Source: Bdellovibrionales bacterium (lineage in GTDB: Bacteria; Pseudomonadota; Alphaproteobacteria; UBA9219). From it: a stretch of DNA of 64,000 nucleotides. Numbering within the stretch: position 1 is the stretch's first letter; each line of letters begins with the position of its first letter. Shown in pieces: positions 1 through 52,763 of this stretch. The translations under genes and the position numbers were made by a program. The DNA is taken from contig JBAZRW010000003.1 in NCBI GenBank assembly GCA_041662785.1, positions 142,531 to 206,530 on the forward strand, written 5' to 3'. The notes below the pieces were generated by a model, which was given only the letters and a program-made list of their open reading frames with translations, ran no database searches and was not told the DNA's origin.

Positions 1-541
1 GATTGAAAAAGGTCATATCAAAATTAATGAGTGGAGCGCGACGGACGAAGCGGGCCTCTACGCTATTGGCGACGTAACCGCGCCGCCTTGGCTTGCGCAT
101 AAGGCCAGCCATGAGGGTGTGATCTGCGTTGAGAAAATTATGGGCGCGAAGGATGTTCATCCGCTTGATCTTGGGAACATTCCGGGCTGCACCTATTGCA
201 CGCCGCAGGTTGCCAGTGTCGGCATGAGCGAGGCGAAGGCCAAGGCCGCCGGGTATCAGGTTCGCGTTGGGCGTTTCAATTTTATGGGCAACGGCAAGGC
301 GATTGCGACGGGCGAGCCGGAAGGCATGGTCAAGACCGTGTTTGATGCCAAGACGGGCGCTTTGCTGGGCGCTCATATGGTCGGTGCGGAAGTGACCGAA
401 ATGATCCAAGGCTTTACGATTGGCCGCGCGCTTGAAACCACGGAAGCTGAGCTAATGCACACGGTCTTCCCGCATCCGACCATTTCGGAATCCATGCACG
501 AAGCGGTGCTGGATGCCTATGGCCGCGTGGTGCATATGTAA
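1..541 (+). CDS. lpdA: dihydrolipoyl dehydrogenase, C-terminal part (5' end outside window)
   Basis: Frame 2 is open from the window edge. The translated C-terminal dimerisation domain (HMVGAEVTEMIQGF...TVFPHPTISE) is typical of E3 lipoamide dehydrogenases. Stop at 539-541. Confidence 0.85.
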   Translation, partial: IEKGHIKINEWSATDEAGLYAIGDVTAPPWLAHKASHEGVICVEKIMGAKDVHPLDLGNIPGCTYCTPQVASVGMSEAKAKAAGYQVRVGRFNFMGNGKAIATGEPEGMVKTVFDAKTGALLGAHMVGAEVTEMIQGFTIGRALETTEAELMHTVFPHPTISESMHEAVLDAYGRVVHM

Positions 542-5949: not shown

Positions 5950-5970
5950 TTCTGTCTGCTGTTGCGCTCT

Positions 5971-6031
5971 ATTGTCCGCTACCACCCGTTAGGCGTTTCC
6001 ACCAGCCGCCTTTGGGCTGATCGCCACCGGA
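5971..6031. repeat. 61-bp direct repeat, copy 1 (duplicate of the rne 3' end)
   Basis: Identical to 6917-6977; it would encode the last ~20 residues of RNase E (NPSGGDQPKGGWWKRLTGGSGQ*). Confidence 0.9.
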
Positions 6032-6035
6032 GGGG

Positions 6036-6893
6036 TTAATTATTGCTGTGTCGGTAGGGGGTGGAGACACGGGGAAAAGCATCTCGAACGGGCTCGTATT
6101 TCTTAAGAATACGATCCATCTGACCACTGTAGACAATCTCCTGCATTGCGTAATCAAGAAACTCCTTTGTTTCATAATCGCCTTTTTTGACGACCAAGGC
6201 GTTTCCAAAAATCCGTAATGGTTTGTCGATGCCGAGGGAGCGAACTGTCCCCGGATTCTTTTGCAAAAACTCGGCAGCCATGGAAGGTTCGGCAAAAATA
6301 ACATCAGCTTTCTTCGTCACAACATTCTCAAAGTTTTGTGAAAACTGAGCTGTGTCAGGTAATGAGACACGCTCTAGCTCTGAAAAATCCGCACGGGCGA
6401 TAGAATCCTCCATCGCGCCATCGACGACCGATAACCGCGCCTTTGCCGTTCTAAGATCATCAAGCGTGTGAAACCGATTATCATCTGAACGAACCCACGC
6501 TTGAATGGTGCTGTAAAAGGCTGGCTGAGAGAAGGAAGCAGCCAAAGCGCGGCTAGCATTCGGCCACAGTCCGCCGCAGAAAACATCAAAACGACCCGCA
6601 TCCAATCCGGGCATGATGTTCTGAAAACCGACTTCTTCGGCCCATCGAATGCGCAAATCGGCATTACGACCAATTTGCTCCATGATGTCATAGAAAATGC
6701 CTGACAACTTTCCTGTGTTGGGGTCGAGGCGAATATACGGGGAATAGACCAGATATCCGCAACTGATCTCATGTGATGCGCGGATATGGTGCAGCGTTGA
6801 GGCGTTTCCATTTGCGTTTTGCTCTTGCGGTTTGCATCCACCAAGGAGTGAGATGCAAACGATAACTGCAAGTGATGCTTTACGAAAACTCAT
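6036..6893 (-). CDS. solute-binding protein family 3 (amino-acid ABC-type periplasmic binding protein-like) lipoprotein, orphan
   Basis: 285 aa with signal peptide plus lipobox (LLGGC) and the SBP_bac_3 fold pattern. ~40% identical to the paralogue at 24392-25252. No permease or ATPase genes adjacent. Confidence 0.7.
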   Translation of the reverse strand: MSFRKASLAVIVCISLLGGCKPQEQNANGNASTLHHIRASHEISCGYLVYSPYIRLDPNTGKLSGIFYDIMEQIGRNADLRIRWAEEVGFQNIMPGLDAGRFDVFCGGLWPNASRALAASFSQPAFYSTIQAWVRSDDNRFHTLDDLRTAKARLSVVDGAMEDSIARADFSELERVSLPDTAQFSQNFENVVTKKADVIFAEPSMAAEFLQKNPGTVRSLGIDKPLRIFGNALVVKKGDYETKEFLDYAMQEIVYSGQMDRILKKYEPVRDAFPRVSTPYRHSNN

Positions 6894-6914: not shown

Positions 6915-9494
6915 TTATTGTCCGCTACCACCCGTTAGGCGTTTCCACCAGCCGCCTTTGGGCTGATCGCCACCGGATGGGTTAACAACTTCATAGGATG
7001 AAGAGCCTTGTCCGACGGGTCTTGGTGTTGTGTCAAGATCATGAATGCTGGTTGGAATGAACGGCTTTGGCGCAGCGGCGCGTTCATGAGAGGCGCGTGG
7101 AGGGCGGCCTCCGCCATTCCCATTCCCCGTTGCGGGTGCAGCAGCGGCTTCGCCTGCTTCACGAGGCTCCCCGCCATTGCGGCGGCGACCACCGCGACGA
7201 CCACGACGGCGACGGCTCTTGCCATCAGGATCAGTATCCTGCTCTTGCGCCGAGGGGCGAGGCGATGATTGCAAATCTTCGCCCAGATCAAGGGAGGACG
7301 TGTTCGCTTCAGGAGAAGCAAAAGGATCATCCGTGGATGCACGCGGCGTTTCACTGCCTCGCCCTCCACGACGGCTTGTGCTGGGGCGGCCCGCGCGATC
7401 ATGTTTGCGGAAACGGCTGCGGCCCCCGCGGCGGCCTGTTCCTTCGGTTGAGCCTTCCTCTTGCGAGGGTGAGGGCGAGGAGTCCCCCTCAGTCTCATCA
7501 CGGGACTCGTCATGCGAGAAGAGTGGCATATCGCGTTCGGTATCAGCAATGACCTGATCCGCGTTCACAGCCGGTTCGGCGCGGCGAGACGTGGGGCGAC
7601 CCTTGGCGCGTTCCAACTTATAACCCGGAGGCGGGATCGCGTCGTCGTTTTGAATGACGATGGTCAGACCGTAGCGCGATTCTAAGGAGCCAACTGCGTC
7701 GCGCTTGTGGTTAAGGATATAGACGGCGACGTTGGTCGGAATTTGAACCGTGATCTCATTCGTGCGTTGCTTGATGGCTTCTTCTTCAATAGCGCGAAGA
7801 ATGGATAGCGCCGCCGAGTCAGGCGAGCGAATATAGCCAGAGCCGGAGCAATGCGGGCATTTCTCAAAGTTGATTTCAATCAGGCTGGGGCGCAGACGTT
7901 GGCGCGACAGTTCCAGCAAACCGAAGGGTGAGATGCGGCCAATTTGCAAACGCGCACGGTCATTCTTCATCGATTCTTTGATGCGGCGTTCGACGGCGGC
8001 GTTATTGCGGCCATCTTCCATATCGATGAAATCGATAACGACTAGACCTGCCAGATCGCGAAGGCGCAGTTGGCGTGCGATTTCTTCGGCGGCCTCAAGA
8101 TTGGTTTTAACCGCCGTTTCCTCAATATGGCGTTCACGCGTGGCGCGGCCAGAGTTCACGTCGATGGACACCAGCGCTTCGGTCGGGTTGATGACCAAAT
8201 AGCCGCCAGAGCGTAGCTGCACAATCGGGCTGTTGAGCGTATCAATTTGGTTTTCCACTTGGAAGCGGATAAACAGCGGCGTCGGATCGTTATAGAGCTT
8301 AACCTTGTCGGCCTGATCGGGCATGACGGCGCGTATAAACTCGTGCGCTTTTTCAAAGCCCTCTTGGCCTGCAATCAAAATCTCGGCGATGTCTTGCGTG
8401 TACAAATCACGCACCGAGCGCTTGATTAGGTTCGCTTCCTCATAAATCAGCGTCGGTGCGCTGGAGGCCAGCGTTTGTTCGCGGATGCTGTCCCACATGG
8501 ACAAAAGATATTCCAAATCGCGCTGAATGTCGGGCGGATCCTGTTCCATGCCCGCCGTGCGCAAGATGACGGCCATGCCTTCGGGGATTTCCAGTTGATC
8601 CAGAATCTCCTTCATACGGCGACGGTCTTGGTGATTGGTAATTTTGCGTGAGACGCCGCCACCGTGATCTGTGTTGGGCATCAAAACACAATAGCGTCCG
8701 GCAAGTGACAGGAAGCTGGTCAAGGCTGCGCCTTTATTCCCGCGCTCTTCCTTCACAACCTGAATGAGCATGACTTGGCCGCGCTTTAGGACTTCTTGAA
8801 TCTTATAGCGGGGGCGATGCTGGCGCACGATGCGCTCGGTCACTTCGCCGCCAACGCTTTCGGGCGGCGCTTCGGGCATTGCGACCTCGGTCAGCGACCC
8901 CCCCCCGATAGCGGCGTTGCCAAAATCTGTGATCAGGCCGACGCTTGTGTCCTCATCGCCAAACGCATGAGCCAAGCTGCTAATAGGGGCAGACGACGGC
9001 TGGGCGGTTGGGGCTGCGGAAGACTCCTCCGCCAAAAGAGCTTCCTCAACGGGAGCTTCATCCTCGGTTGGAGACGTTGTGGCCTTATCTTGCGTGTAGT
9101 CTTTGTCGTCGTCATCGGCCTCATCAGGAGCGGAATCGTTCCCGTTAAGCTCAGAGTCGATATCCGTATCCTCTTGGTCTTCTTCGTCCATAGAGTCGTC
9201 GTCCGACTCTTCCTCATCATGGGGGCGATCCGCCATGGGGATGCGGAAGTAATCGGGATGGATTTCGCTGAAGGGCAAGAAGCCGTGGCGGTTGCCGCCG
9301 TACTCGACAAAAGCGGCCTGCAAGGACGGCTCAATGCGCATGACCTTGGCCAGATAGATATTGCCCCGCAAGATAGGCTTGCTGGCCAAACTAAAGTCAA
9401 GATCTTCTAATCTATTGTTATCTCTATAGCTTTCGACAATTGCTATACGAGTCTCTTCGGGATGCATGGCATCCACCAACATTCTTTTCGTCAT
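6915..9494 (-). CDS. rne: ribonuclease E
   Basis: 859 aa. N-terminal S1 domain interrupted by a long acidic insertion (DEEESDDDSMDEEDQED...), as in alphaproteobacterial RNase E. Catalytic core present (DFIDMED..., CPHCSGSGYIRS zinc-link). Arg-rich C-terminal scaffold. Confidence 0.9.
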   Translation of the reverse strand: MTKRMLVDAMHPEETRIAIVESYRDNNRLEDLDFSLASKPILRGNIYLAKVMRIEPSLQAAFVEYGGNRHGFLPFSEIHPDYFRIPMADRPHDEEESDDDSMDEEDQEDTDIDSELNGNDSAPDEADDDDKDYTQDKATTSPTEDEAPVEEALLAEESSAAPTAQPSSAPISSLAHAFGDEDTSVGLITDFGNAAIGGGSLTEVAMPEAPPESVGGEVTERIVRQHRPRYKIQEVLKRGQVMLIQVVKEERGNKGAALTSFLSLAGRYCVLMPNTDHGGGVSRKITNHQDRRRMKEILDQLEIPEGMAVILRTAGMEQDPPDIQRDLEYLLSMWDSIREQTLASSAPTLIYEEANLIKRSVRDLYTQDIAEILIAGQEGFEKAHEFIRAVMPDQADKVKLYNDPTPLFIRFQVENQIDTLNSPIVQLRSGGYLVINPTEALVSIDVNSGRATRERHIEETAVKTNLEAAEEIARQLRLRDLAGLVVIDFIDMEDGRNNAAVERRIKESMKNDRARLQIGRISPFGLLELSRQRLRPSLIEINFEKCPHCSGSGYIRSPDSAALSILRAIEEEAIKQRTNEITVQIPTNVAVYILNHKRDAVGSLESRYGLTIVIQNDDAIPPPGYKLERAKGRPTSRRAEPAVNADQVIADTERDMPLFSHDESRDETEGDSSPSPSQEEGSTEGTGRRGGRSRFRKHDRAGRPSTSRRGGRGSETPRASTDDPFASPEANTSSLDLGEDLQSSPRPSAQEQDTDPDGKSRRRRGRRGGRRRNGGEPREAGEAAAAPATGNGNGGGRPPRASHERAAAPKPFIPTSIHDLDTTPRPVGQGSSSYEVVNPSGGDQPKGGWWKRLTGGSGQ
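6917..6977. repeat. 61-bp direct repeat, copy 2 (native rne 3' end)
   Basis: Perfect match to 5971-6031. Confidence 0.9.
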
Positions 9495-10124
9495 TTATTT
9501 CTCCTACCGGCTTGTCGCGATAGAGCTTATAAAAGCATCTTACGCGCCAGCGTCCGGCAAATTCGTTACCCAAAAAACACAGGCGCCTTCTGACATCGGG
9601 GATTGGGAATACCCAAATCAGGGTTATAGGAGCGCCTATGAGCGCTTTGGCCACCGACATCTTGTTCATGCGCTTTGAGTTATTGTTTTGACTCTATTAA
9701 AGGGTCAACGCAGAAAAAGGTTCCGGCTTTCTTAAGCACTTTTTTGATCATAAACACAAAAGAGCCTTGACGCAATCGCTTATTGGGCTAATTTTTCCCG
9801 TTCCGCAAATAACGCTAATTCTTTGATTGTAAACGAAGAAATATCAAAGGCTTCATATATAGGAATATATGGCTATGTTTTTATGATAATATGACTATAT
9901 GCCTAAAAATAATTTTTTAAAGTCCTAAATAGGTTGAATTTTATAAAATAAATTCCTTGAAAAAGGCTTAAAAAGCCGCCATACCCCCTTGACAATATCC
10001 TATAGGGTAGGAGGACATCGCCACGCACTCTTATGAGAGTGGGGCAAGTGTCCTTTATTTTGTTTTTGTTTAAGGGCGCTCCCATTTAAGGCGACGCGCC
10101 CGTTCGATGAAGAAAGAGGATACC

Positions 10125-14694: not shown

Positions 14695-14800
14695 GTCATT
14701 CCGGCGCAAGCCGGAATCCAGCGCCGAGTGTCCACGAGGCGTATGAGTCATAAGCGCCGCAGACGCGGCGCACTGGATCCCGACTTTCGTCGGGATGACG
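14695..14800. repeat. MITE-like palindromic repeat, family B copy (inverted relative to 39297)
   Basis: GTCATTCCGGCGCAAGCCGGAATCCAGC ... GCACTGGATCCCGACTTTCGTCGGGATGAC. The core is the reverse complement of the core at 39330-39380. Confidence 0.75.
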
Positions 14801-14877
14801 CAAGGGATGAGGTTTGGCGAAATAGAGCGAGAGTTGTTATAACGAATACGATGCAGAGGAATAGGAGAATAATCGCG

Positions 14878-19534: not shown

Positions 19535-19665
19535 AAAGAAAAAAGAAAACGGGATCCCCGCTTTCGCGGGGATGACGATAGCAGGATGAAATTAAACACA
19601 AAACCCGTCATTCCCGCGCAAGCGGGAATCCCGTTTGTTTTCTTTCTCAACGAGTCGTTTCATGA
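19535..19665. repeat. MITE-like palindromic repeat, family A copy
   Basis: AGAAAACGGGATCCCCGCTTTCGCGGGGATGACG - atagcaggatgaaattaaacacaaaac - CGTCATTCCCGCGCAAGCGGGAATCCCGTTTGTTTTCT. Arms are about 38 nt and inverted. Confidence 0.8.
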
Positions 19666-22811: not shown

Positions 22812-22885
22812 TGGAGCGGGTGAAGGGAATCGAACCCTCATAGCCAGCTTGGAAGGCTGGTGCTTTACCACTAAGCTACACCCGC
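22812..22885 (-). tRNA. tRNA-Gly (anticodon TCC)
   Basis: Reverse complement GCGGGTGTAGCTTAGTGGTAAAGCACCAGCCTTCCAAGCTGGCTATGAGGGTTCGATTCCCTTCACCCGCTCCA folds as a cloverleaf with anticodon-loop UCC. Confidence 0.85.
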
Positions 22886-22935
22886 TCATGGGTGGTTGTT
22901 CTGTATCATGCCGTTTTTACGGCGGCAAGCCGCCG

Positions 22936-23040
22936 TGGGTGAAGGGAATGATCAAAAACAGGCGGAACGCGCCTGTTTTTGCCCCTTCGGGCGCCCCCGC
23001 TTCGCGGGATGCGTCCAAAATGCTTTCGCATTTTGTCGAT
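22936..23040. repeat. 105-bp segment B between 100-bp direct repeats: tRNA-Gly 3'-end fragment + GATCAAAAAC + palindromes
   Basis: TGGGTGAAGGGAAT (matches the tRNA-Gly 3' part) - GATCAAAAAC - CAGGCG/CGCCTG hairpin - TTTTTGCCC - cccgcTTCGgcggg and aaatgcTTTCgcattt hairpins. Confidence 0.6.
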
Positions 23041-23090
23041 CCTCATAGCCAGCTTGGAAGGCTGGTGCTTTACCACTAAGCTACACCCGC
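23041..23090 (-). pseudogene. truncated duplicate of tRNA-Gly (positions 1-50 only)
   Basis: 50 nt identical to the 5' half of the tRNA at 22836-22885, followed by an identical 50-bp upstream region (23091-23140 = 22886-22935); the T-arm and acceptor 3' strand are missing. Confidence 0.8.
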
Positions 23091-23152
23091 TCATGGGTGG
23101 TTGTTCTGTATCATGCCGTTTTTACGGCGGCAAGCCGCCGTTAATTCCTGCC

Positions 23153-23298
23153 GTCATCCCCGCGAAAGCGGGGATCCAGCTGCGAGCGATAGCGAGCGTG
23201 TGAGTCGAACAAGACAACAAACAGCACTTCCCTAGACCTTTTTTGAGTCACGTGGCCCGCAGACGCGGGCCGCTGGATCCCCGCTTTCGCGGGGATGA
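23153..23298. repeat. MITE-like palindromic repeat, family B copy
   Basis: GTCATCCCCGCGAAAGCGGGGATCCAGC ... GCTGGATCCCCGCTTTCGCGGGGATGAC perfect inverted termini around a ~90-bp core. Confidence 0.8.
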
Positions 23299-23512
23299 CT
23301 GGAATAGGTAACAATAAGGCATCATCCTCTATCACGAGCCTTTTATTACAGCAAGATAGAAGTGTAAGAAAGGTATAAAATCCTCTTTCTTTTTCTGTAC
23401 AAATGGGGTAAAAAGCACCGTTCCCAACAAATCAATAAGCTTTGTCCGACGTGATCGCCGGACGGGCGATTCTGGGTTCAAGGACAGTTCTTAATGATTG
23501 TATGAGGCTTTT

Positions 23513-25441: not shown

Positions 25442-25523
25442 CGTCACTCCCGCGTAAGCGGGAGTCCCGTTTGTTTTAACAAGTAAACGGGATCCCCGCT
25501 TTCGCGGGGATGACGAAAATGGA
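25442..25523. repeat. family A arm-pair in outward (rearranged) orientation
   Basis: CGTCACTCCCGCGTAAGCGGGAGTCCCGTTTGTTTT-aacaagt-AAACGGGATCCCCGCTTTCGCGGGGATGACG. Confidence 0.6.
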
Positions 25524-26367: not shown

Positions 26368-27078
26368 ATGAAACAAGGAAAAAAACTCCGCAAGGTTCTC
26401 CCCGCTGTTGATCGCAAGAAGCTGTATGCTCTTGAAGATGGCGTGAAGCTTGTCAAGAAGAACGCGGGCGATCTATCGCGCAAGTTCACCGAGACTCTGG
26501 ACATTGCCATCAATCTTGGTATCGACACAAAGCAATCGGATCAGTCTGTGCGTGGCATGGTGCAATTGCCTCATGGTACGGGCAAAAGCGTCCGCGTGGC
26601 CGTGTTCGCCAAGGGCGAAAAAGCGGATGCCGCTTTGGCCGCTGGCGCGGATGTTGTCGGCGCTGACGATTTGGCTGAAAAGATTATGGGCGGTTTTTCT
26701 GCCTTTGATCGCGTCATTGCGACCCCTGACATGATGGGCGTTGTTGGCAAGTTGGGTAAGGTTCTGGGGCCTCGTGGCCTTATGCCTAACCCGAAGCTTG
26801 GCACTGTGACCCCGAACGTCGTGGAAGCGATCAAGTCGGCCAAGGCTGGCTCGATTGAGTTCCGCGCCGAAAAGGGCGGTATCATTCATGCTGGCATCGG
26901 CAAGATCAGCTTTACCGAAGAGCAGTTGATCGAGAATGCTCGCGCCTTTATCAGCGCGATCGCCAAGGCTCGTCCCGCTGGCGTGAAGGGCACTTACATC
27001 AACCGCGTGGCGTTGTCCTCAACCATGGGCCCCGGCCTGAAGGTTGATCTTTCGACAATGCTTGGCGAACAGGCCTAA
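26368..27078 (+). CDS. rplA: 50S ribosomal protein L1
   Basis: 236 aa; conserved L1 sequence; start 3 nt after the rplK stop. Confidence 0.95.
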
Positions 27079-27103
27079 CGCTTGATCGTTTAAAGACTAA
27101 AAA

Positions 27104-27138
27104 AGCCCCGCTTATTGCAAGGTCAGCGGGGTTTTTGT
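27104..27138 (+). terminator. rho-independent terminator after rplA
   Basis: CCCCGCT-tattgcaaggtc-AGCGGGG followed by TTTTTG. Confidence 0.7.
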
Positions 27139-27235
27139 TGCCACTTTTTTCATCATTATTGGCGCTGTAAATGGCTCTAAAATTGGGGTTCGGGATTTGT
27201 TTATTATCAAGGCGTTAGAAAAAAAACATCGATTT

Positions 27236-27530
27236 ACAGCCCTAAGAGCGTGGGATAGTGCCACTCAGTCGCCTTCCGCTCAAAGTTAATGCGGTAAGCC
27301 TTTGAAATATAATAAAACTGACTCGATTTTTTGGCATGGCTAACCAATTGATTTTACATGGTTTTATGAACTTCGTCCGATTTTGGATCGCCAAAAGCAA
27401 AAAAAACGCAGGATTGGGGGCGACTCTTTTCGTCATCCCGCACCCCTCTACGCCCTTTGGGCTTCGCGGGGCAGGCGAAGCCTTGCGCGAAGGCGGGACG
27501 ATGATGCGGGACCTAGGGGACTGGGCGACG
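27236..27530. repeat. ~300-bp repeat, family C copy 1
   Basis: Shares about 230 nt of interrupted similarity with 52133-52440 (AGCGTGGrATAGTGCCACTCAGT..CCTTCCGCTCAAAGTTAA ... GCTAACCAATTGATT ... CCGATTTTGGATyGCCAAAAGCAAAAAA ... CGTCATCCCsgaCCCCTCTrCGCCCTTyGGGCTTCGCGGGGCAGGCrAAGC). Confidence 0.7.
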
Positions 27531-27638
27531 AATGAATGATAGAGAGGGCGGAGAGAGCGGCTTGATCCCAGATCAACTTTCTTTCGTCTCACAACGGTGA
27601 GCCGAAAAGAAAGTTTTCTGGGATGGCGGCAGGTGGCC

Positions 27639-28385
27639 TTACACCATAATCATGCCGCCGTTGATATGTATCGTTTGGCCCGTGATATAACGTGCTTCCT
27701 CGCTGGCCAAAAAGACGATGCTGGCCGCGACATCTTTCGGCTCACCCAGATAACCCAACGGAATGTTGGCGAGCATTTTGTTCTTTTGCTCGTCATTCAG
27801 CTTGTCGGTCATGGCCGTGACGATAAAGCCCGGTGCGACGCAGTTGACGGTGACGCCGCGTGGCGCCATTTCCTGCGCCAGCGATTTGCTCATAGCGATC
27901 AGGCCGCCTTTGGACGCCGCATAGTTGGCTTGACCTGCGTTGCCCATCACGCCGACGACGGACGCCATGTTGATGATGCGGCCCCAGCGGCGTGTCATCA
28001 TGCCTTTCAGCGCGGCACGCGAGAGGCGAAACGCAGAGGACAAGTTCACGTTCATCACAAGATCCCAGTCTTCATCCTTCATGCGCATGGCAAGGCCATC
28101 GCGCGTCAGGCCAGCGTTGTTGATCAGAATATCCACGCCGCCGCCCAATTTCTCCTCGGCTTCCTTGATAAGGGTCGGGGGAACGGCGGGATCGGTCAGG
28201 TTGCCAACAATAGTCACCGCATGCGCCGCGCCGCCAAGTTCGGCTTGCAGCGCTTCGATGCCTTCGGGGCGAATGTCGGTCAGGGCAACGCGTGCGCCTT
28301 GCGCCACCAGCATCTTGGCGATAACCGTGCCTAGGCCGCCTGCCGCGCCCGTAACCAGAGCGTTCTTTCCATTCAGTGACAACAT
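27639..28385 (-). CDS. fabG: 3-oxoacyl-[ACP] reductase
   Basis: 248-aa SDR: TGAAGGLG cofactor motif, NAG, S...YAASK catalytic triad; adjacent to fabD. Confidence 0.9.
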   Translation of the reverse strand: MLSLNGKNALVTGAAGGLGTVIAKMLVAQGARVALTDIRPEGIEALQAELGGAAHAVTIVGNLTDPAVPPTLIKEAEEKLGGGVDILINNAGLTRDGLAMRMKDEDWDLVMNVNLSSAFRLSRAALKGMMTRRWGRIINMASVVGVMGNAGQANYAASKGGLIAMSKSLAQEMAPRGVTVNCVAPGFIVTAMTDKLNDEQKNKMLANIPLGYLGEPKDVAASIVFLASEEARYITGQTIHINGGMIMV

Positions 28386-28408
28386 GGTCTTTCCTTTCGT
28401 GTTTTTCT

Positions 28409-29353
28409 TTATAAGGATTGTTTGAGGTAAGCGTCGATATCTTCGGGAGTTTGCAAAGATACCGCCGTAATTTCTTTATCGATGCGTTTGGTCAGGCCCG
28501 CCAAAACAGCGCCAGAGCCGCATTCGACCAGCTGATCGACGCCATGCGCCTTCATAAACAAAACGGACTCGCGCCAACGGACAGAGCCAGTGATTTGCTG
28601 CACCAACAGATCGCGGATAACATCGGGGTCGCTTGTTGCCAACGCCGTGACGTTTGAGACGACAGGCACGCAAGGTGGCATCAGATGAACTTGTGCCAAG
28701 GCCTCCCTCATGACATCGGCGGCGGGCTGCATAAGGGGGCAATGAAACGGCGCGCTGACGGGCAGCTTGATGCAGCGTTTCAGGCCCTTTTCAGCGGCCA
28801 GCGCGATGGCGCGATCAATCGCGTGGTTGTTGCCGCTAATGACGACTTGGCCATCCGCGTTATCGTTGGCGGCCACGCAAATGTCGCCTTGTGATGCAGC
28901 AGCGGCAATCTCTTTGGCGAGATCGACATTCGCGCCCAGCAAAGCCGCCATGCCGCCGATCCCCGCAGGGACGGCCTTTTGCATAGCGCGGCCACGCTTG
29001 CGTAAGAGGGTCGCGGTGTTCGCCAGCGTCAGGCTTTCCGCCGCGCAAAGCGCCGCATATTCGCCAAGGCTATGCCCCGCTACAAAGGCGGCCATTTCGG
29101 GCAGTTTCAGTCCACTTTGCGACATTAAAACGCGCAAAACGGCGATGCTTACGGCCATCAAGGCGGGCTGCGTGTTTTCTGTCATTTTCAGCTCATCTTC
29201 CGAGCCGTCAAACATAAGGGTCGAGAGTTTCTGTTCCAAAACCTCATCAACCTCTTGAAAAACCATGCGAGCCTCAGGGAAGGCCTCAAAAAGAGCCTTG
29301 CCCATGCCGATCTTTTGGCTTCCCTGTCCGGGAAATACGAATGCTTTTGTCAT
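28409..29353 (-). CDS. fabD: malonyl-CoA:ACP transacylase
   Basis: FPGQGSQ and GHSLGEYAAL active-site motifs. Confidence 0.9.
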   Translation of the reverse strand: MTKAFVFPGQGSQKIGMGKALFEAFPEARMVFQEVDEVLEQKLSTLMFDGSEDELKMTENTQPALMAVSIAVLRVLMSQSGLKLPEMAAFVAGHSLGEYAALCAAESLTLANTATLLRKRGRAMQKAVPAGIGGMAALLGANVDLAKEIAAAASQGDICVAANDNADGQVVISGNNHAIDRAIALAAEKGLKRCIKLPVSAPFHCPLMQPAADVMREALAQVHLMPPCVPVVSNVTALATSDPDVIRDLLVQQITGSVRWRESVLFMKAHGVDQLVECGSGAVLAGLTKRIDKEITAVSLQTPEDIDAYLKQSL

Positions 29354-29465
29354 TTTTTCTCCTTAGAGCCCGAAACTGCCACGCTTGAAGCCGCTTGTCA
29401 AAGCCCCTCCAAGCCGCTTTAATGCGGCAAGTTAAAGCGGTTAACCAACTTTTTGTGGGCGTTTT

Positions 29466-30449
29466 ATGATTTTGATTACTGGCGGAGCGGGCTTTATCGG
29501 CTCTTACTTGGCGGCAGCGCTTGAGGCGCGGGGCGAGCGTGTGGTGATTTGTGACTGGCTTGGCACGGATGACAAGTGGCGCAACATTGCTAAGCGCGAC
29601 CTTGATAATCTGATCGCGCCCGAAAAGTTGTGCGATTATCTGAACGATCACAGTGGCGATATCGAGGCGATCTATCACATGGGCGCGATCTCGGCCACGA
29701 CCGAGGCTGACGCCGATTTGATTGCTGAGAGCAACTTTCGCCTGACCCGCACCTTATGGCTGTGGTGTCGCGATAATGGCTCGCGGCTTATTTACGCGTC
29801 ATCGGCGGCGACGTATGGCGATGGCAAGGCTGGCTTTGACGATGTCGAGAGCATCGAGGGGCTTAAGGCCTATCAGCCGCTTAATGCCTATGGCTGGAGC
29901 AAGCACCTAACTGACCGCTGGATTGCGCAGCAGAAAAAGAAGGGCGACCGTGGTCCCGCGCAGTGCGTCGGCCTGAAGTTTTTTAACGTCTATGGCCCCA
30001 ACGAGTACCATAAGGGTGGGATGCGCTCGGTCGCGCACCAGATTTTCCCATTTGCCAAACGTGGCGAGGCCTTTTCGCTCTTCAAGTCGCACCATCCCGA
30101 TTACAAGGACGGTGGGCAGCTGCGTGATTTCGTGTGGGTCGGCGATTGCGCCAACGTCATGCTGTGGCTTTTGGATCATCCTGCCGTCAACGGCTTGTTC
30201 AATATGGGGTCGGGGAAGGCTCGCAGCTTTGCAGATATGGCGGCGGCGGTTTATGTCGCTGCGGGCGCGACGCCCCAGATCACCTACCGCGATATGCCAG
30301 AGGTTTTGCGTGACAAATACCAGTACTTTACGCAAGCCAACATGGATAAGCTTCGCGCCGCAGGGTATGATGCGCCCATGACTCCGCTAGAGGAAGGTAT
30401 TCGCCTTTACGTCCAAAACCATTTGGAAAAAGAAGATCCGTATGTTTAG
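29466..30449 (+). CDS. hldD: ADP-L-glycero-D-manno-heptose 6-epimerase
   Basis: ILITGGAGFIGS Rossmann motif, YASSAATYG and extended-SDR YxxxK layout resembling HldD/RfaD; adjacent hldE. Confidence 0.8.
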   Translation: MILITGGAGFIGSYLAAALEARGERVVICDWLGTDDKWRNIAKRDLDNLIAPEKLCDYLNDHSGDIEAIYHMGAISATTEADADLIAESNFRLTRTLWLWCRDNGSRLIYASSAATYGDGKAGFDDVESIEGLKAYQPLNAYGWSKHLTDRWIAQQKKKGDRGPAQCVGLKFFNVYGPNEYHKGGMRSVAHQIFPFAKRGEAFSLFKSHHPDYKDGGQLRDFVWVGDCANVMLWLLDHPAVNGLFNMGSGKARSFADMAAAVYVAAGATPQITYRDMPEVLRDKYQYFTQANMDKLRAAGYDAPMTPLEEGIRLYVQNHLEKEDPYV

Positions 30450-30465
30450 CTTTAGGTTAAACGAA

Positions 30466-30585
30466 TAGAGAAAAAAGAAAATGGATGCCAGCCTTCGCTG
30501 GCATGACAAGGGGTAGGAGGTAAAGTTAATCCTAATCCGTCATCCCCGCGCAGGCGGGGATCCCATTTTTTAATTTTTCCACTGC
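30466..30585. repeat. MITE-like repeat, family A variant copy
   Basis: AGAAAATGGATGCCAGCCTTCGCTGGCATGACAA - core ggggtaggaggtaaagttaatcc - GTCATCCCCGCGCAGGCGGGGATCCCATTTTTTAATTTTT. Confidence 0.6.
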
Positions 30586-30604
30586 AATAGGGGAGGAGAT
30601 ATCT

Positions 30605-30781
30605 ATGCCAAATGAAGGAAACAAGACCAGCGCATCAAAATCACCTACAGGAAGTACATTCACGATTGATCTTGATACGATCCCCAATGGTCACCGCAAA
30701 CCTGTCGAGTGTTGTAAAAGAAGCCATCTAACGCGGCTGTGGCGGGAGAGATCAGCCTCCAGCCAACTTGTTTTTGATTAA
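30605..30781 (+). CDS. hypothetical small protein (58 aa), not in the ORF track
   Basis: ATG 7 nt after GGAGGAG; translation MPNEGNKTSASKSPTGSTFTIDLDTIPNGHRKPVECCKRSHLTRLWRERSASSQLVFD; ends 15 nt before hldE. Confidence 0.25.
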   Translation: MPNEGNKTSASKSPTGSTFTIDLDTIPNGHRKPVECCKRSHLTRLWRERSASSQLVFD

Positions 30782-30795
30782 GGAAAAACCATATC

Positions 30796-32253
30796 ATGTA
30801 TGCCCATCTTCATACGCAACTTGAAAAACTTATAGGTCACCGCGTTTTGTGCGTGGGTGACGTGATGCTGGATCGCTTTATCTATGGCGAGGTGGATCGT
30901 ATCTCGCCCGAAGCGCCCATTCCCGTCCTTCGCATTAAGCGCGAGCTTCTGGCCATGGGCGGCAGCGGCAACGTCGTGCGCAACCTTGCCACCATGGGGG
31001 GCAACGTCGATATGGTGGCCGTGATCGGGCATGATCAAGCGGGCCATGACCTTGCCGCGCAGATGGAGGCGATGAACAGGATTACGCCTCACTTGCTGAC
31101 CGATGCTTCGCGTCCCACGACGATCAAGACGCGCTATATCGCGGGCAGCCAGCAGCTGTTGCGTGCCGACAGAGAAGATGCCGCGCCGTTGTCCACCTTG
31201 ATGGAGGAGCAGCTTTTGGCGCGCGCGCAAAGCGTGATCGATGGATGCCAGATTGTGATCCTTTCGGACTACGCCAAGGGCGTCTTAACGAACCATGTGG
31301 TGCGCGAGATCATTACGCTGTGCCGTGAGCATGGTAAGCCAATTTTGATCGATCCCAAGGGGAGGGACTTTGGCCGCTATCACGGTGCGACGATGCTCAC
31401 TCCCAACCGTAAGGAACTCGCCGAGGCAACAGGTCTGCCCATTACGACGATTGATGAGGCCGAAGCCGCCGCGCGTAAGCTCATCATCGATTTTGATATT
31501 GGCGGCGTGCTGGCCAAACTGGGTGGCGACGGCGTTTGCCTTGTGATGAAGGATAAGCCCGCGCGTCATTTCCACACGGTCACCAAGGAAGTGTTCGATG
31601 TTTCCGGTGCGGGCGACACCGTGATTGCGACGATGGCGATGGCGATGGCGGGCGGGTTGTCTTTGGACGATTGCGCGGCTTTGGCCAACATCGCGGGATC
31701 GATTGTCGTAAGCAAAATTGGGACGGCGACGATCACGCTGGAGGAAATCGAAAAGGAAATTCTGCGCGATCAATCGCGCATGGGCGAAGACAAAATCATG
31801 ACGTCCGCCGAGGCGGCGGATAGAGCCGAGCGTTGGCGCGGGCAGGGGCTAAAGGTCGGTTTCACAAACGGTGTATTTGATTTGCTGCATCCCGGGCATT
31901 TGTCGTCGATCAACCAGTCCCGCGCTGCGTGCGATAAACTGATCATTGCGCTTAACAGCGATGCGTCGGTAAAAAGGCTGAAGGGTGAGGCGCGGCCTGT
32001 GCAGAACGAAAACGCCCGCGCTGCTGTTTTGGCAGCGCTAGAGGCCGTGGCGGGCGTAGTGATTTTCAGCGAGGACACGCCGCTGGACCTTATCAAAACC
32101 ATCCGCCCCGATACGCTGGTGAAGGGATCGGATTACACCATCGATCAAGTCGTCGGCGCGAAGGAAATGGAAAGCTGGGGTGGCCAAGTCATCTTGGCCG
32201 ACCTTGTGCAGGGCCACAGCACCACGGCGCTTATCGAGAAGCTGACACGATAA
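30796..32253 (+). CDS. hldE: bifunctional D-beta-D-heptose 7-phosphate kinase / D-beta-D-heptose 1-phosphate adenylyltransferase
   Basis: N-terminal ribokinase-like domain (VLCVGDVMLDRFIYG, GAGDT) plus C-terminal cytidylyltransferase domain (GFTNGVFDLLHPGHL). Confidence 0.85.
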   Translation: MYAHLHTQLEKLIGHRVLCVGDVMLDRFIYGEVDRISPEAPIPVLRIKRELLAMGGSGNVVRNLATMGGNVDMVAVIGHDQAGHDLAAQMEAMNRITPHLLTDASRPTTIKTRYIAGSQQLLRADREDAAPLSTLMEEQLLARAQSVIDGCQIVILSDYAKGVLTNHVVREIITLCREHGKPILIDPKGRDFGRYHGATMLTPNRKELAEATGLPITTIDEAEAAARKLIIDFDIGGVLAKLGGDGVCLVMKDKPARHFHTVTKEVFDVSGAGDTVIATMAMAMAGGLSLDDCAALANIAGSIVVSKIGTATITLEEIEKEILRDQSRMGEDKIMTSAEAADRAERWRGQGLKVGFTNGVFDLLHPGHLSSINQSRAACDKLIIALNSDASVKRLKGEARPVQNENARAAVLAALEAVAGVVIFSEDTPLDLIKTIRPDTLVKGSDYTIDQVVGAKEMESWGGQVILADLVQGHSTTALIEKLTR

Positions 32254-34744: not shown

Positions 34745-34855
34745 CTGTCCCATTCTTCGTCATCCCGCACCCCTCTACGCCCTTCGGGCTTCGCGGGGCA
34801 GGCGAAGCGACGCGTGAACATCGCGTAGATGCGGGATGACGAAATAGTGAATGGC
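34745..34855. repeat. hairpin module shared with family C repeats
   Basis: CGTCATCCCGC-acccctctacgcccttcgggcttcgcggggcaggcgaagc...-GCGGGATGACG; the same inner sequence is present at 27432 and 52336. Confidence 0.65.
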
Positions 34856-34902: not shown

Positions 34903-37900
34903 TTACCCCCCCATTAACCACTTGATATCGTCTTGGGTAAGGGAAGCGGCAGCAGCGGGTTTATCACCAAACAGCGCGGCGGCAAGGCCAGCCTTGCGGC
35001 CTTGAAGCTCCACTATACGCTCCTCCACAGTGCCTTCCGCGATCATCTTGTATACAAAGACGTGCTTCGTCTGGCCGATGCGATGGGCGCGATCCGTAGC
35101 CTGATTTTCCACGGAAGGGTTCCACCATGGATCATAATGAATGACAGTATCCGCCGCCGTCAGGTTGAGTCCCGTGCCGCCAGCCTTAAGGCTGATAAGG
35201 AACAAGGGAACCTCTCCAGCTTGAAAACGTTTGACGGGCGTGGCGCGATCTTTGGTCGTGCCGCGAAGCTCAACATAGGGAATGTCCAGCTTCTCGACCT
35301 CTAGCTTGATCAGATCGAGCATCGAGGTGAATTGCGAAAAAAGGAGAATCTTGCGGCCTTCTTCGATAAGGGTAGGTATCATCTCCATCAGCTCATCCAG
35401 CTTGGCGGAGGATTTCACCTTCCGCGCAGCCTCTAGCTTGACAAGGCGCGGATCGCAGCACGTCTGGCGAAGCTTTAGCAGCGCGTCCAAAATAACAATC
35501 TGGCTTCGCGCAAGGCCTTTGGCTGCGATTTCATCGCGCACCTTGTCGTTCATGACGTGACGCACGGCTTCGTACAGGTCGCGCTGATCGTCGGCCAGCG
35601 TGACGTGACGGATAATCTCTGTCTTGGGCGGCAGGTCTTTTTCAACTTCGGATTTCAGGCGGCGCAGAACGAAAGGCCGCAAGCGCCGCGCGAAAAGATT
35701 CTTGCGATCATTATCACCGTCTTTTTCAATCGGTGCGCGATAATGCTTGGTGAACTTTTTATGATCGCCCAAAAGACCCGGCATCAGGAAGGTGAAGATA
35801 GACCACGCCTCGCCCAAATGGTTTTCGACAGGCGTACCCGTCAGGCAAATCCTTTGCTTGGCTTTCAGGGAACAAGCCGCCTGAGTCATCTTAGCCGCTG
35901 GGTTCTTGATGGCCTGCGCCTCGTCAAGGATCAGAAGACTCCATTTCTGCCCCGCCAGCTTTTCGCTGTCACGCGGCAGCAAAGGATAAGTTGTCAGAAC
36001 AACATCATAGTGTTCGGTCTTACTAAATCGGGTGAAGCGCTCTTTGCCATGAAGGGTCAGGACTTTAAGGGAGGGCGTGAACTTGGCCGCCTCCGCCTGC
36101 CAGTTGGCAATTAGGCTGGTCGGCATGACAATCAGGCAAGGATCTTCAAGCTTTTTGGATTCTTTAAGCGACTGGATATAGGCGAGGGTCTGGATGGTTT
36201 TACCCAGTCCCATATCGTCGGCCAGAATGCCGGACAGCCCGTATTCGCCAAGAAAGTGCAGCCAGTTGTAGCCATCGATTTGATAGGGCCGCAGCGTGGC
36301 ATCCAGCTTTTTAGGTAACGCGCGTTTTTTGATGCCTTCAAAGTTGCCCAGTTTTTCAATCAACTTGCGAAGGCCGCCTTCGCCAAGCCAACGCTTGCTG
36401 GTGATTGCCTCTAACTTCAAGAACGCAGCGGTCAGATCCATCGACACGCGCAGCGTGCCGTCTTTGTTCAGCGCTTTGTCGTCGAACAGCTCAACCAGTG
36501 TTTTCAAAATCGTGCGGATACGATCCGCAGGCAGCGCGATCATGCGACCATCGGGCAGTGGCGCATAGCATTTGCCGCCTTCGGTCAGACGATCAATATC
36601 GGCGTGCGCGTTCAGCTTCTTGATCATGGCGACAAGGATGGGCAAAAGGGGGATGCGCTCCCCCCCTATTGTAATGCCCAGATCCATCGAAAACCACCAA
36701 TCGCCCGTTTGCTCAAACGACGCGTCGATGTCCTCGCTATCCGGCTCAAGGATGATGGCGGGCTGCGGCGCGTTGTCGCTGATCACAAAGCCTTCGGCCT
36801 CAAGCAATGCGCGACCCGTGTGACGTATATCCAGCCAAAACCAAGGTGAGGCCGTTTCATCGGGCAAGAGAAGGGAAGGCTGCGCGGAGGCAAAATCGCC
36901 CAACGGATGGGGGGCGGGCATCAGATGATGCTGCTCAAGCTTCTTTAGAAGTTTTTTCTCTGCCGCCCCATTACGTTTATAGAGGCGAATTTCATCGTCC
37001 TTGACCGCTGTATAATGTGTTGGCGTAAGGGTAGAGGCCGTCCCTTCCTCACCATAGGTAAAGGAAAGCCTAGCCGTTTGCTCACCCTTGGGTGTTTGCA
37101 CTAGGTTCAGATGCGCGGACGGAGTCTCAAGCTTGTCTTTCATGTCGCGGATTTTAAAGGGCGCGGGTAAAGGCGCGTCAATTTCCTTCATGGCCTTGCG
37201 TACCGCGGGCGTTTCATTTTGTGTGATGGGCGGCGCTTTAAGAAAACGCGCTACGATCTGCGCTTCTTCACGGCAGACAAGCCGACCCATCGCGCCATTG
37301 GCCACGTTGACATACCACGGGCTAGGCAGGAAAAGGGGCGTCAAATCACGCCCAGCAGGGGCGATGGTCGGGCGTTGCCGCATGTCGGGCAAAAGCGTCC
37401 ATGACAGATGACCTTCTTCGTCTTTGCCCCTTATAAGCGGCGAGGTGTTTTCATGATCCAGAAAGGCGCGACCCGTGCTTAAAATACGGGTTACGATAAA
37501 ATCAACATAATCGCCATCGGTATCAAACGACCACGCTATATGGGGCAACTGACTCCCATAATGGTCTTTTAAAAGAAGAAAGATGCCCTTGTCTTGCTCA
37601 TGATAAAGGCTGCCTTGCTGACGCATCATCGTGGCTTGTCCATAACCAACATTTTTCTTACCGCTCCACCCACCGTCGCGCAGCTTGTGCTGAGAGTAAG
37701 GTGTTACGATAAGGCTACCGCCCCCTTTTTCGTCCTGTGCAAGAATATAGATGAGGCGGCTGTCTTGAAGGGAGGCGTTGTTTTCACCTGCCTTCAGATT
37801 TTTAAGCCAGCCAAGCGTTTGCGTTGATAGCGCAGCGGCCGCGCCCTTGCGACCGGCCAAGGTAAAATCGCCGATGCGTTCGTGCTTGCGACTATCCTGC

Positions 37901-39296: not shown

Positions 39297-39401
39297 GTCA
39301 TCCCCGCGAAGGCGGGGATCCAGCTGCGCGGCGTCTGCCGCGCCTAAGACTCATACGCCTCGCGGACGCTCGGCGCTGGATTCCCGCCTTCGCGGGAATG
39401 A
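39297..39401. repeat. MITE-like palindromic repeat, family B copy
   Basis: GTCATCCCCGCGAAGGCGGGGATCCAGC-49 nt core-GCTGGATTCCCGCCTTCGCGGGAATGAC. Confidence 0.8.
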
Positions 39402-39465
39402 CAAAACGGGTAAGGACTAACGCCATCGCCCGTCTTGGCAGAAAATCGATCTTAATGAAATAATC

Positions 39466-44157: not shown

Positions 44158-44300
44158 AATAAAAAAAACGGGATCCCCGCTTTGCCCTTTCGCCCGCCGC
44201 AAGAGCGGCGGGACGAGGGCGCGGGGATGACGATAGAGGGTAAAACTTAAACAAAAACCCGTCATGCCCGTGAAAACGGGCATCCCGTTTGTTTTCTTTT
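44158..44300. repeat. MITE-like repeat, family A copy with nested insert in left arm
   Basis: AAAACGGGATCCCCGC[tttgccctttcgcccgccgcaagagcggcgggacgagggc]GCGGGGATGACG - atagagggtaaaacttaaacaaaaaccc - GTCATGCCCGTGAAAACGGGCATCCCGTTTGTTTTCT. Confidence 0.75.
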
Positions 44301-51810: not shown

Positions 51811-52132
51811 AGCCGAACCGTTTAGTTTCCTCATTTCCCCCACCGTCATCGCGAGGGGGCGTCTTGTCCGGCGTAGCTGCGAAGCAGCGAAGACGGAAGC
51901 CCCCGTGGCGATCCATCTCCTGAATTTAGCGAAGAGCAATTCTAGTGGAAGGTTGAGGAGATGGATTGCCGCGCTCCCGTTGGTCGCTCGCAATGACGTG
52001 GGATATCATGAGAACCATCCAGAATAGCTATAGTCCTTTTTTCTGGTCAATTAGCTCTGTTTTTTGCCCCCGAAAAGTCGGCCATCGACATGCTTTGTTA
52101 TCAAATACTTAGCGCAAAAACATTCGCCACGG

Positions 52133-52440
52133 TCGAGCAGAGCGTGGAATAGTGCCACTCAGTATCCTTCCGCTCAAAGTTAACGTCGTAAGTCTTTGAT
52201 ATACAACGAAACTGACTCGAATTTGGGTCTATGCTAACCAATTGATTCTAAAGGGCTTTGTCAACTTCGCCCGATTTTGGATTGCCAAAAGCAAAAAATC
52301 AGGAGTCAGGGGGTGAGGTTCAGAGTTGGTCTCTCCTCTTTCGTCATCCCCGACCCCTCTGCGCCCTTCGGGCTTCGCGGGGCAGGCAAAGCGACGCAGC
52401 AGCGGAGCGGAGATACAGGATACATCTTCTGAAATGACCA
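52133..52440. repeat. ~300-bp repeat, family C copy 2
   Basis: Matches 27236-27530 in several blocks; ends in a CGTCATCCC...GCAGGCAAAGC hairpin module. Confidence 0.7.
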
Positions 52441-52763
52441 AGAGCGACTCAGGTAGAAATTTCAGGTGATGGATCCCGCCTTCCGGCGGGATGACGGGAG
52501 GGGGGCTGGCATCCCTTTTTTTTGAATCATTTTATCTGACGTAGGTTATAATGGGTTACGCAAGAGGTCTATTTCACAAGATCGCTAATCTCTCTAAAAT
52601 TTTCAATTTTCAAATTGACTTCCATTTTCATTCATTCTATGCCACGGCAGCGTTGCACACCGCGTTCAAGGTGGGCCTCGTCGTGAATCCTTCTTAACGT
52701 ATGCAATGAAGGTATTCGCTTCGCAAAACCAACTTGCTCGTCTACATAACGATGGATCCTTTC

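Follow-up and report, generated by a model that had tools for sequence, protein, structure and literature searches.

The window analysed here is a 64,000-nt stretch of contig JBAZRW010000003.1 from a Bdellovibrionales bacterium (genome A), and it carries two copies of an intergenic repeat. Copy 1 lies downstream of rplK and rplA on the plus strand and is followed by fabG and fabD on the minus strand, while copy 2 lies between atpC and a NuoL/NuoH-like (hyf-like) gene cluster, both on the plus strand; this gene context agrees with the first-pass annotation of the DNA. That annotation had also claimed that 27236-27530 and 52133-52440 share conserved blocks, which was confirmed by a repeat search pairing 27245-27404 with 52139-52298 (160 nt, 84% identity); a MAFFT alignment spans all of 27200-27560 versus 52100-52470. 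Two of the blocks it named, the 21-mer CCGATTTTGGATNGCCAAAAGC and the 30-mer GTGCCACTCAGTNNCCTTCCGCTCAAAGTTAA, each matched twice in the window (0.01 and 0.00 matches expected, respectively), and exact matches to GCTAACCAATTGATT were found solely at the two copies.

The shared part of the two copies is a core of 176 nt that is non-coding and not palindromic. Core copy 1 occupies 27228-27403 on the plus strand (full-length nhmmer match, E 1e-54), and its left junction was seen again in an independent Logan contig (L001). Core copy 2 occupies 52122-52297, also on the plus strand; its initial ~17 nt have diverged and it is well conserved from 52139 (nhmmer match 52133-52297, E 1e-49). No indels separate the two cores, and the sole length difference between the window copies is a 17-nt indel in the spacer that connects the core to a hairpin module on its right. 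The reading frames had been said to differ between copies; the shift is present, and its source is this spacer indel, the core itself being free of indels. In all copies the right end of the core is sharp, at GCAAAAA. Alignment also revealed short direct repeats inside the core (GATCGCC twice, CGRTTTTGG two to three times, TAACCnnTTGA twice) and a hypervariable patch of 7-9 nt, for which no consistent complementarity to the flanks was seen by eye.

The distribution of the repeat was examined by scanning one genome per species, 185,579 species in all, for the exact 21-mer CCGATTTTGGATNGCCAAAAGC. Seventeen loci were retrieved, solely from two metagenome-assembled genomes (MAGs): 12 from Micavibrio sp. 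IMS_BF (genome B) and 5 from 'M. aeruginosavorus' SulCav (genome C). A further copy in genome C that lacks the exact 21-mer (L036) was found with a profile hidden Markov model (nhmmer), and assembly GCA_017973835.1 proved to be a second assembly 99.97% identical to IMS_BF. Nothing related was detected in ~56 kb from the next relatives, genomes D and E. Many of the 17 scan loci lie at contig ends, as expected because the repeat breaks assemblies. JGI metagenomes, viral contigs (IMG/VR), plasmids and phages yielded nothing related, with one chance match among the viral, plasmid and phage sequences; in the JGI metagenome scans a first pattern gave no matches and a second gave four loci that share just the 21-mer. 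One of these four (L028, JGI contig Ga0137405_1353317) is a near-perfect palindrome over its whole 4.5 kb, an assembly artefact whose two 21-mer matches are unrelated to the element. In total the family comprises 19 core copies in the genomes of three closely related Micavibrio-like predatory bacteria and so far is confined to this small clade of alphaproteobacteria.

The degenerate E. coli consensus for integration host factor (IHF), WATCAANNNNTTR, has nine specified and four N positions. Nine exact matches were present in the window versus 2.2 expected; none of 100 shuffled sequences reached nine, and five of the nine fall inside the two copies. Across the 286 kb examined, 22 of 34 matches lay within 3.3 kb of element sequence, a density of 6.7 versus 0.042 per kb (~158-fold). 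In copy 1, site 1 (TATCAAggcgTTA, 27205-27217, plus strand) is located 11 nt upstream of the core, in a left extension typical of A/C-type copies; site 2 (TTTCAAaggcTTA, 27295-27307, minus strand) differs from the consensus at one position; and site 3 (AATCAAttggTTA, 27341-27353, minus strand) is exact, with an A/T-rich tract on its 5' side. In copy 2 all three sites are exact: TATCAAatacTTA at 52099-52111 on the plus strand, TATCAAagacTTA at 52189-52201 on the minus strand and AATCAAttggTTA at 52235-52247 on the minus strand. Here sites 1 and 2 form a 13-nt inverted repeat that is 92% complementary.

The sites were then compared between copies. Site 3 (core positions 113-125, minus strand) is exact in 15 of 15 copies that span it and also in L036; its nine specified bases are constant and its N positions read TGGG, TGAG, TAGG or TTGG. 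Site 1 is exact in all six A/C-type copies scored as well as in the independently found L036, with variation at all four N positions (GGCG, ATAC, CACG, TATG, TAGG) and a flank that is otherwise poorly conserved. Site 2 (alignment columns 68-80) matches perfectly in copy 2 of the window and has a single mismatch in the others, again with variable N positions. An A/T-rich tract 5' of the site is a trait of strong IHF sites, and both sites 2 and 3 have such a tract. IHF-alpha is encoded in genome B (NCBIfam equivalog, 144.5 bits against a cutoff of 111). Specified bases that stay fixed while N positions drift freely are the pattern that would be predicted for a protein-binding site.

Two further exact IHF-consensus matches were noted outside the cores, both on the minus strand. 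One, at 34915-34927, lies 70 nt from a solitary CGTC-tagged palindrome described below; the other, at 9816-9828, lies in the short rne-rpoB spacer, a junction that holds core copies in genome B.

Conservation of the core was assessed at an orthologous locus of genomes B and C (L010 and L014, respectively), where the genes are collinear on both sides. The core is 90.3% identical without gaps, the flanking coding sequences are 85-86% identical and the DNA further out is unalignable. The core is thus at least as well conserved as the coding sequences beside it, indicating constraint on its sequence, whether in the service of the host or of its own spread. Even between these orthologues the hypervariable patch is wholly different. 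No indels were found in the 14 full copies.

Several tests addressed what kind of sequence is being conserved. The proposal that the element is not a protein gene was upheld: stop codons occur in every frame and are placed differently across 14 copies, no conserved open reading frame (ORF) spans all copies, and mismatches between the two window copies are distributed 11/7/8 over codon positions. One frame had looked open between the two window copies; a conserved TGA is found there across all copies, and a coding reading was rejected. The companion proposal of a structured RNA found no support. An Rfam search of the copies returned no element match either at gathering thresholds or at E<=10, only tRNAs and noise, and minimum free energy z-scores for both window copies on both strands ranged from -1.3 to +0.9, which corresponds to no stable fold. 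Consensus folding of 14 copies over 176 nt with RNAalifold gave -14.9 kcal/mol and 1 of 39 compensatory pairs on the plus strand, and -18.9 kcal/mol and 0 of 31 on the minus strand, so that folds are weak and covariation is practically absent. The best explanation of these results is that the core acts at the level of DNA rather than as an RNA or a protein gene, and it should be annotated as neither.

Other candidate signals were considered and set aside. Sigma-70 promoters and terminators did not exceed shuffle expectation, and none was conserved between copies. B-type copies contain TAAAGCTT-N11/12-(G)CCCGAT, resembling a sigma-28 promoter, the -35 part of which is by inspection not conserved in the window copies. 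Inspection of the core gave no match to CtrA or DnaA boxes, and as regards clustering of GANTC, GACTC alone is invariant.

All copies are located between housekeeping genes, named by eye from translations; the neighbours include alaS, rpoB, glmS, fhs, mrdA, rne, accC, parC, purC, flgBC, smpB, a gene for a methyl-accepting chemotaxis protein and an ntrY-like gene. By all-against-all BLAST, copies from different species are similar over ~176 nt and those within genome B over ~245 nt, and the similarity never reaches into neighbouring genes. In ~8 of 10 scorable copies the gene to the left of the element has the same orientation and its 3' end towards the element, often with the stop codon 81-151 nt away; at n ~10 this orientation bias is not significant. 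No transposase was found within ~3 kb of any copy, and no integrase or recombinase gene adjoins any full copy. A degenerate relative of the element (L019 18239-18440; nhmmer E 0.015), which has the hairpin loop AAGATTCGTTGATTCTA of the B-type copies in a different arrangement, lies beside a XerC/D-like recombinase gene.

Copies in genome B seem to be of different ages, with eight or more young ones. Eight B-type copies at unrelated housekeeping loci are 92.7-100% identical (mean 95.6%) over ~245 nt, whereas the older copy L010 is just 85-87% identical to these eight. The unit of the young copies extends beyond the core, on the left through a hairpin (AAAAAACCCAA...TTGGGTTTTTT) and at least one 12-mer CCCCCTTTTTCG, and on the right to GCGTGACGAT, where a repetitive extragenic palindromic (REP) sequence starts. 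Judged from these identities, the young copies look like a recent duplicative burst. Gene conversion alone fits less well, because L010 would then have been homogenised too, yet it remains distinct. Taken together, these observations suggest indirectly that the family may be mobile.

Short tandem arrays flank the young copies, with a copy number that varies by locus (L031 10954-10999; L017 6978-7039). The right array consists of AGGGACT repeated 6.6 times, with G-tracts spaced like a G-quadruplex motif, and is embedded in the REP arm; the left array consists of one to six copies of the 12-mer CCCCCCTTTTCT/CCCCCTTTTTCG.

To the right of the core lies the hairpin module, which had been claimed to occur on its own as well. 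This was borne out, with matches at 34756-34837, 27429-27510 and 52340-52421 (three versus 0.00 expected). The solitary copy (34756-34845, plus strand; CGTCATCCCGCA...TGCGGGATGACG) is a complete, nested palindrome of ~90 nt with CGTC/GACG tags at its bounds; as DNA it folds at -30 kcal/mol (z = -4.6), and none of 200 shuffled sequences was as stable. The module after core 1 (27429-27515, plus strand) is a partly intact CGTC-tagged palindrome of REP type (-23.9 kcal/mol, z = -3.0), while in the degenerate module after core 2 (52340-52421, plus strand) the 5' arm alone is recognisable and the sequence no longer folds (z = +1.4). Because a complete copy stands alone at 34756-34845, the module represents a separate repeat family. 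Both window cores and most of those in genome B have CGTC-tagged palindromes directly to their right, which several C copies lack. The first-pass annotation had offered a composite mobile element as one reading of the whole; its composite nature, a non-palindromic core plus an independent CGTC palindrome, is substantiated, and the support for mobility is indirect.

CGTC-tagged REPs (the CGTC-1 family) have been reported in M. aeruginosavorus (PMC3733652). The CGTC tag that unites this REP superfamily is shared by the hairpin module and by numerous short palindromes of the window such as CGTCATCCCCGCGAAAGCGGGGATCC. The superfamily is defined by a stem of 8-9 bp and a loop of 4-5 nt (PMC3733652), whereas the ~90-nt nested hairpin at 34756-34845 is far longer, and the 176-nt core falls outside the REPs altogether. 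The short palindromes CGTCATCCCCGCGAAAGCGGGGATCC are dense in the intergenic regions of the window, often as head-to-head dimers, at sites that include 577-684, 14695-14801, 19540-19645, 23153-23301, 25443-25516, 30471-30577, 39297-39404 and 44159-44299, and they match the CGTC-1 REPs reported for M. aeruginosavorus. By contrast, the genome paper on strain ARL-13 described a genome almost free of repeats and mobile elements, with 0.10% repeats under a criterion of >=97% identity and >=50 bp (PMC3189940). Unlike ARL-13, the relatives considered here have intergenic regions packed with REPs, at least one larger repeat family and gene order scrambled at operon boundaries.

The copies had been proposed to sit exactly where conserved operons break. 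We compared the rplA junction (window 27078-27140) with L019, L022, L024, L026, L036 and L038. The intrinsic terminator hairpin of rplA (AAAAAAGCCCCGC...GCGGGGTTTTTG, 27099-27137, plus strand) lies outside the repeat, and a terminator-like site was detected here on the minus strand. BLAST similarity to B, C and D (L019, L036 and L022, respectively) stops at 27136-27140, the last bases of this terminator, and similarity to E stops at 27105, inside it. In L024 and L026, which are more distant, rplJ-rplL and rpoBC come after rplA; the window has rpoBC upstream and the element after rplA. The next gene is fliQ in B (three assemblies), a helix-turn-helix (HTH) gene and mfd in C (two assemblies), a zeta-toxin gene in D (two assemblies), and tetR on the minus strand with a resistance-nodulation-division (RND) pump in E. 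In five close relatives, B, C, D and E among them, RplA is 89-98% identical, the gene after rplA is different each time and no core is located there. The break thus occurs without the core in relatives, and the junction is a recurrent breakpoint with or without the element. The location of the copy at an operon break stands, and a role of the element in causing or specifically marking the break is a possibility. Over the seven genomes, what follows rplA is different in each: fabG(-), fliQ, HTH plus mfd, tetR(-), zeta-toxin, an unknown ORF then rplJ, and rplJ.

Genome D provides further detail on this junction. The fabG-fabD-epimerase-rfaE block (window 27637-32223 versus L022 6105-10508) is also near rplA in D but inverted in place, and a zeta-toxin/HTH island lies between rplA and the block. 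The presence of this block near rplA in D supports the rplA/fab adjacency of the window as real and places copy 1 where an inversion ends on one side. The window and its nearest relative likewise have different genes downstream of atpC. One B assembly has a core after atpC (L031, 82% identical to copy 2) that is followed by purC and not by the hyf-like cluster. A second assembly of the same organism (L003; 99.97% identical over 6.2 kb) joins the same core-purC segment to scpAB, the two diverging inside a REP dimer ~200 nt left of the core (junction L031 10557). The orthology of the atpC-associated core is uncertain because the two assemblies join different upstream genes at the REP, and MAG contigs of this clade can be chimeric at repeats.

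At two further B copies, L004 and L016, the junctions are also unlike those of the window, these loci having been selected through the element itself; the L010/L014 locus has kept its collinearity on both sides. On the available contigs, blocks of about 10 kb have evidently been reshuffled in the clade, with the breaks at operon boundaries. Copies are found at block boundaries in the majority of cases, and a causal role is a possibility; such positions are as expected, because repeats are tolerated solely between operons and are prone to homologous recombination.

We favour, at a probability of roughly 0.6, a model in which the repeat is a new family of dispersed non-coding intergenic mosaic elements of the BIME/RIP or Correia kind that probably binds IHF. 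The unit consists of the ~176-nt non-palindromic core, or ~210-245 nt with the left part, often joined on the right to the separate CGTC-tagged palindromes. It has two to three conserved IHF-consensus matches, a plus-strand one at its left margin and two inside the core on the minus strand. IHF would bind and sharply bend the core, producing a compact nucleoprotein module. Duplication would have carried the family into further intergenic sites, most of them immediately past the 3' ends of genes, with a recent burst in one genome. As dispersed homologous DNA, the copies would be possible substrates for recombination, and their presence at some synteny breakpoints is consistent with this. We infer on these grounds that the element may take part in rearrangement.

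Known repeat families offer partial precedents. BIMEs and Correia elements both carry IHF sites (PMC3184786). The E. coli BIME-1/RIP (RIB) elements resemble the family described here in being extragenic mosaics of REP palindromes with a non-palindromic motif that contains an IHF consensus site (PMC3184786), in having tens of copies at gene 3' ends or between convergent genes, and in lacking an ORF. They differ in that their L motif is ~30-40 nt, compared to a non-palindromic part of 176 nt with two to three IHF-type sites predicted from sequence; their REPs are GTAG-tagged rather than CGTC-tagged, no sequence similarity exists, and unlike the REP - L motif - REP order of BIME-1/RIP the core is often without a flanking REP at one end or at both. 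Correia elements (CREE/NEMIS) of Neisseria are likewise non-coding intergenic repeats, of ~100-160 bp, with an IHF site, whose copy number and position differ between close relatives and which are tied to rearrangement-prone regions, as in the present family (PMC3184786). Correia elements end in inverted repeats of 26 bp, duplicate a TA target and fold into long hairpins; the core lacks inverted repeats at its termini, and its folding is no more stable than that of shuffled sequence. ERIC/IRU (PMC3184786 for ERIC), RSA and the RIME elements of Rhizobium are of similar size (~100-180 bp) and copy number (tens), share the intergenic housekeeping context, and are also genus-restricted with no known function; ERIC and RIME are built round large imperfect palindromes, which the core lacks, and show no sequence similarity to it.

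Several observations weigh against this model. IHF binding is deduced from matches to a degenerate E. coli consensus; because all copies share one ancestor, the enrichment amounts to two to three independent sites, not 22, and B-type copies lack site 1. An IHF-binding filler sequence does not fully explain conservation at the level of coding DNA, the absence of indels or the hypervariable 7-9-nt patch. Gene conversion could account for part of the homogeneity in genome B, and MAG assemblies, the source of most copies, cannot be relied on at repeats. As to mobility, no transposase (within ~3 kb of the copies), terminal inverted repeats or target-site duplication was found. Five copies searched for terminal inverted repeats gave only internal pairs (IHF site 1 with sites 2/3, and local hairpins). 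The element has the size, copy number and coding status of a miniature inverted-repeat transposable element (176-245 nt, multicopy, no frame open across copies), and it is not a classical one because it lacks terminal inverted repeats. Nor was a clean pair of filled and empty sites found: at the rplA, atpC and L010 ABC-transporter loci the neighbouring genes of the relatives differ too, and because every locus compared differs in its flanking genes no target-site duplication can be read. The flanks of the young copies are blurred by the 12-mer and 7-mer arrays, and a look-up of the likely genome-A homologue (P0157) returned nothing.

Could the core instead be transcribed? A multicopy small RNA gene, or an RNA derived from a 3' untranslated region, expressed from its own promoter or by read-through and acting in trans or in cis, would make sense of a hypervariable patch within an otherwise fixed scaffold, the patch serving as a variable seed. 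It would also suit conservation as strong as that of coding DNA and the left side facing a co-oriented gene's 3' end in ~8 of 10 copies, and the B-type hairpin with its T-run directly left of the core could terminate a minus-strand transcript. We nevertheless consider such an RNA unlikely, given the lack of an Rfam match, the weak folds with one and zero compensatory pairs, the lack of a sigma-70-like promoter conserved across copies, the absence of a terminator on either strand in A/C-type copies, and an orientation bias that at n ~10 is not significant. A portable regulatory region is the least probable of the readings we weighed. It would be an IHF-assisted promoter, possibly a sigma-54 promoter with -24/-12 elements at the 3' edge (TGGATCGccaaAAGCA), that fires outward. 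The sigma-54 consensus is TGGCAC at -24 and TTGC at -12, and the GG-N10-GC spacing at core positions ~156-170 (TGGATCG-N4-AAGCA) is correct. A promoter here would explain why conservation ends ~6 nt past the GC of the putative -12 element, the centre of IHF site 3 would fall near -63, and an inverted repeat (GAGCG-N26-CGCTC) occupies the position of an upstream activator site. Moreover, a plus-strand gene lies downstream of copy 2 and of eight other copies, an extra conserved box precedes the downstream gene in four copies, and Correia elements carry outward-firing promoters (PMC3184786). Yet by inspection four strongly conserved positions depart from this consensus (TGGAT for TGGCA, AAGC for TTGC), and in about half of the copies, copy 1 among them, a convergent gene ends 8-236 nt away, which leaves a promoter nothing to drive. 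Furthermore, the identity of the right-edge block in 19 pattern-ascertained copies is partly an artefact of the search pattern, and L036 diverges here.

Alternatively, the core could be a site-specific recombination site or a transposon-end-like module (attP- or IS-end-like), in which bending by IHF lets a recombinase bound to the direct repeats recombine copies, a process that would itself produce the rearrangements at these junctions. Three IHF-type sites in inverted orientation within ~160 bp, the short internal direct repeats GATCGCC, CGRTTTTGG and TAACCnnTTGA, and the sharp right boundary at GCAAAAA in all copies would be in keeping with such a site, as would the location of both window copies and of L004 and L016 at synteny breaks and the inversion of the fabG-rfaE block by copy 1 relative to D. 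These points have to be set against neighbours that are all housekeeping genes, with no recombinase gene adjoining any full copy; against the rplA junction, which is broken in B, C, D and E without a core; and against L010/L014, which stayed collinear on both sides. The direct repeats, too, may be due to chance, and homologous recombination or assembly errors equally predict breaks at dispersed repeats. We regard this reading as improbable, and we give similarly little credence to its stronger form, in which the core is a dedicated IHF-assisted module at which an unlinked recombinase, with the help of the three IHF bends and the short direct repeats, exchanges or inverts segments and so actively drives the unusually fast shuffling of operon neighbours in the clade, as seen in the varied genes after rplA. 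If that were true, the role of the hypervariable 7-9-nt patch would be to set specificity or the crossover.

Viewed as a dispersed mosaic repeat, the element has several uses. A repeat that is conserved like coding DNA and has fixed IHF motifs offers a handle on how nucleoid proteins organise small predatory genomes. It likewise offers a handle on spread without a known transposase and on whether repeats drive rearrangement. In practical terms, such repeats break MAG assemblies and may mis-join them.

Right of core copy 2, a box (GGTTACGCAAGAGGTCTATT) is located at 52554-52573 on the plus strand. In the form GGTTAYGCAAGAGGTCTATT this box was observed four times in the DNA examined (window 52554-52573; L015 7323-7342; L007 176-195; L009 ~256). 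All four lie on the core strand, 123-256 nt right of the core and beyond the REPs, and all four precede a plus-strand gene (hyf-like, fhs, flgB and ntrY-like). The box may be the distal end of a longer ancestral composite element, or an operator.

A further palindromic repeat family of ~95 nt (GGCGATCCATCTCC...GGAGATGGATTGCC, with CGTCATTGCGAGCG-type ends) is present in the window at 51904-51998, between atpC and core copy 2, and recurs in genome B at L019 14612-14706 and L031 16147-16240.

Elsewhere in the window, a 70-nt direct repeat that is 99% identical (5970-6039 and 6916-6985) duplicates the 3' end of rne, with the tail ...NPSGGDQPKGGWWKRLTGGSGQ. The two repeats flank an insert of ~0.9 kb with an ORF for a 285-aa periplasmic binding-protein-like product (6036-6893, minus strand), which looks like a gene insertion with target duplication. 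Part of tRNA-Gly (22812-22885, minus strand) falls within a perfect direct repeat of 101 nt, its copies 205 nt apart (22836-22936 and 23041-23141). At the second copy a tRNA was scored only marginally (23021-23090, 29.1 bits). One possibility is that part of the tRNA was duplicated here, for example as the scar of an old integration.

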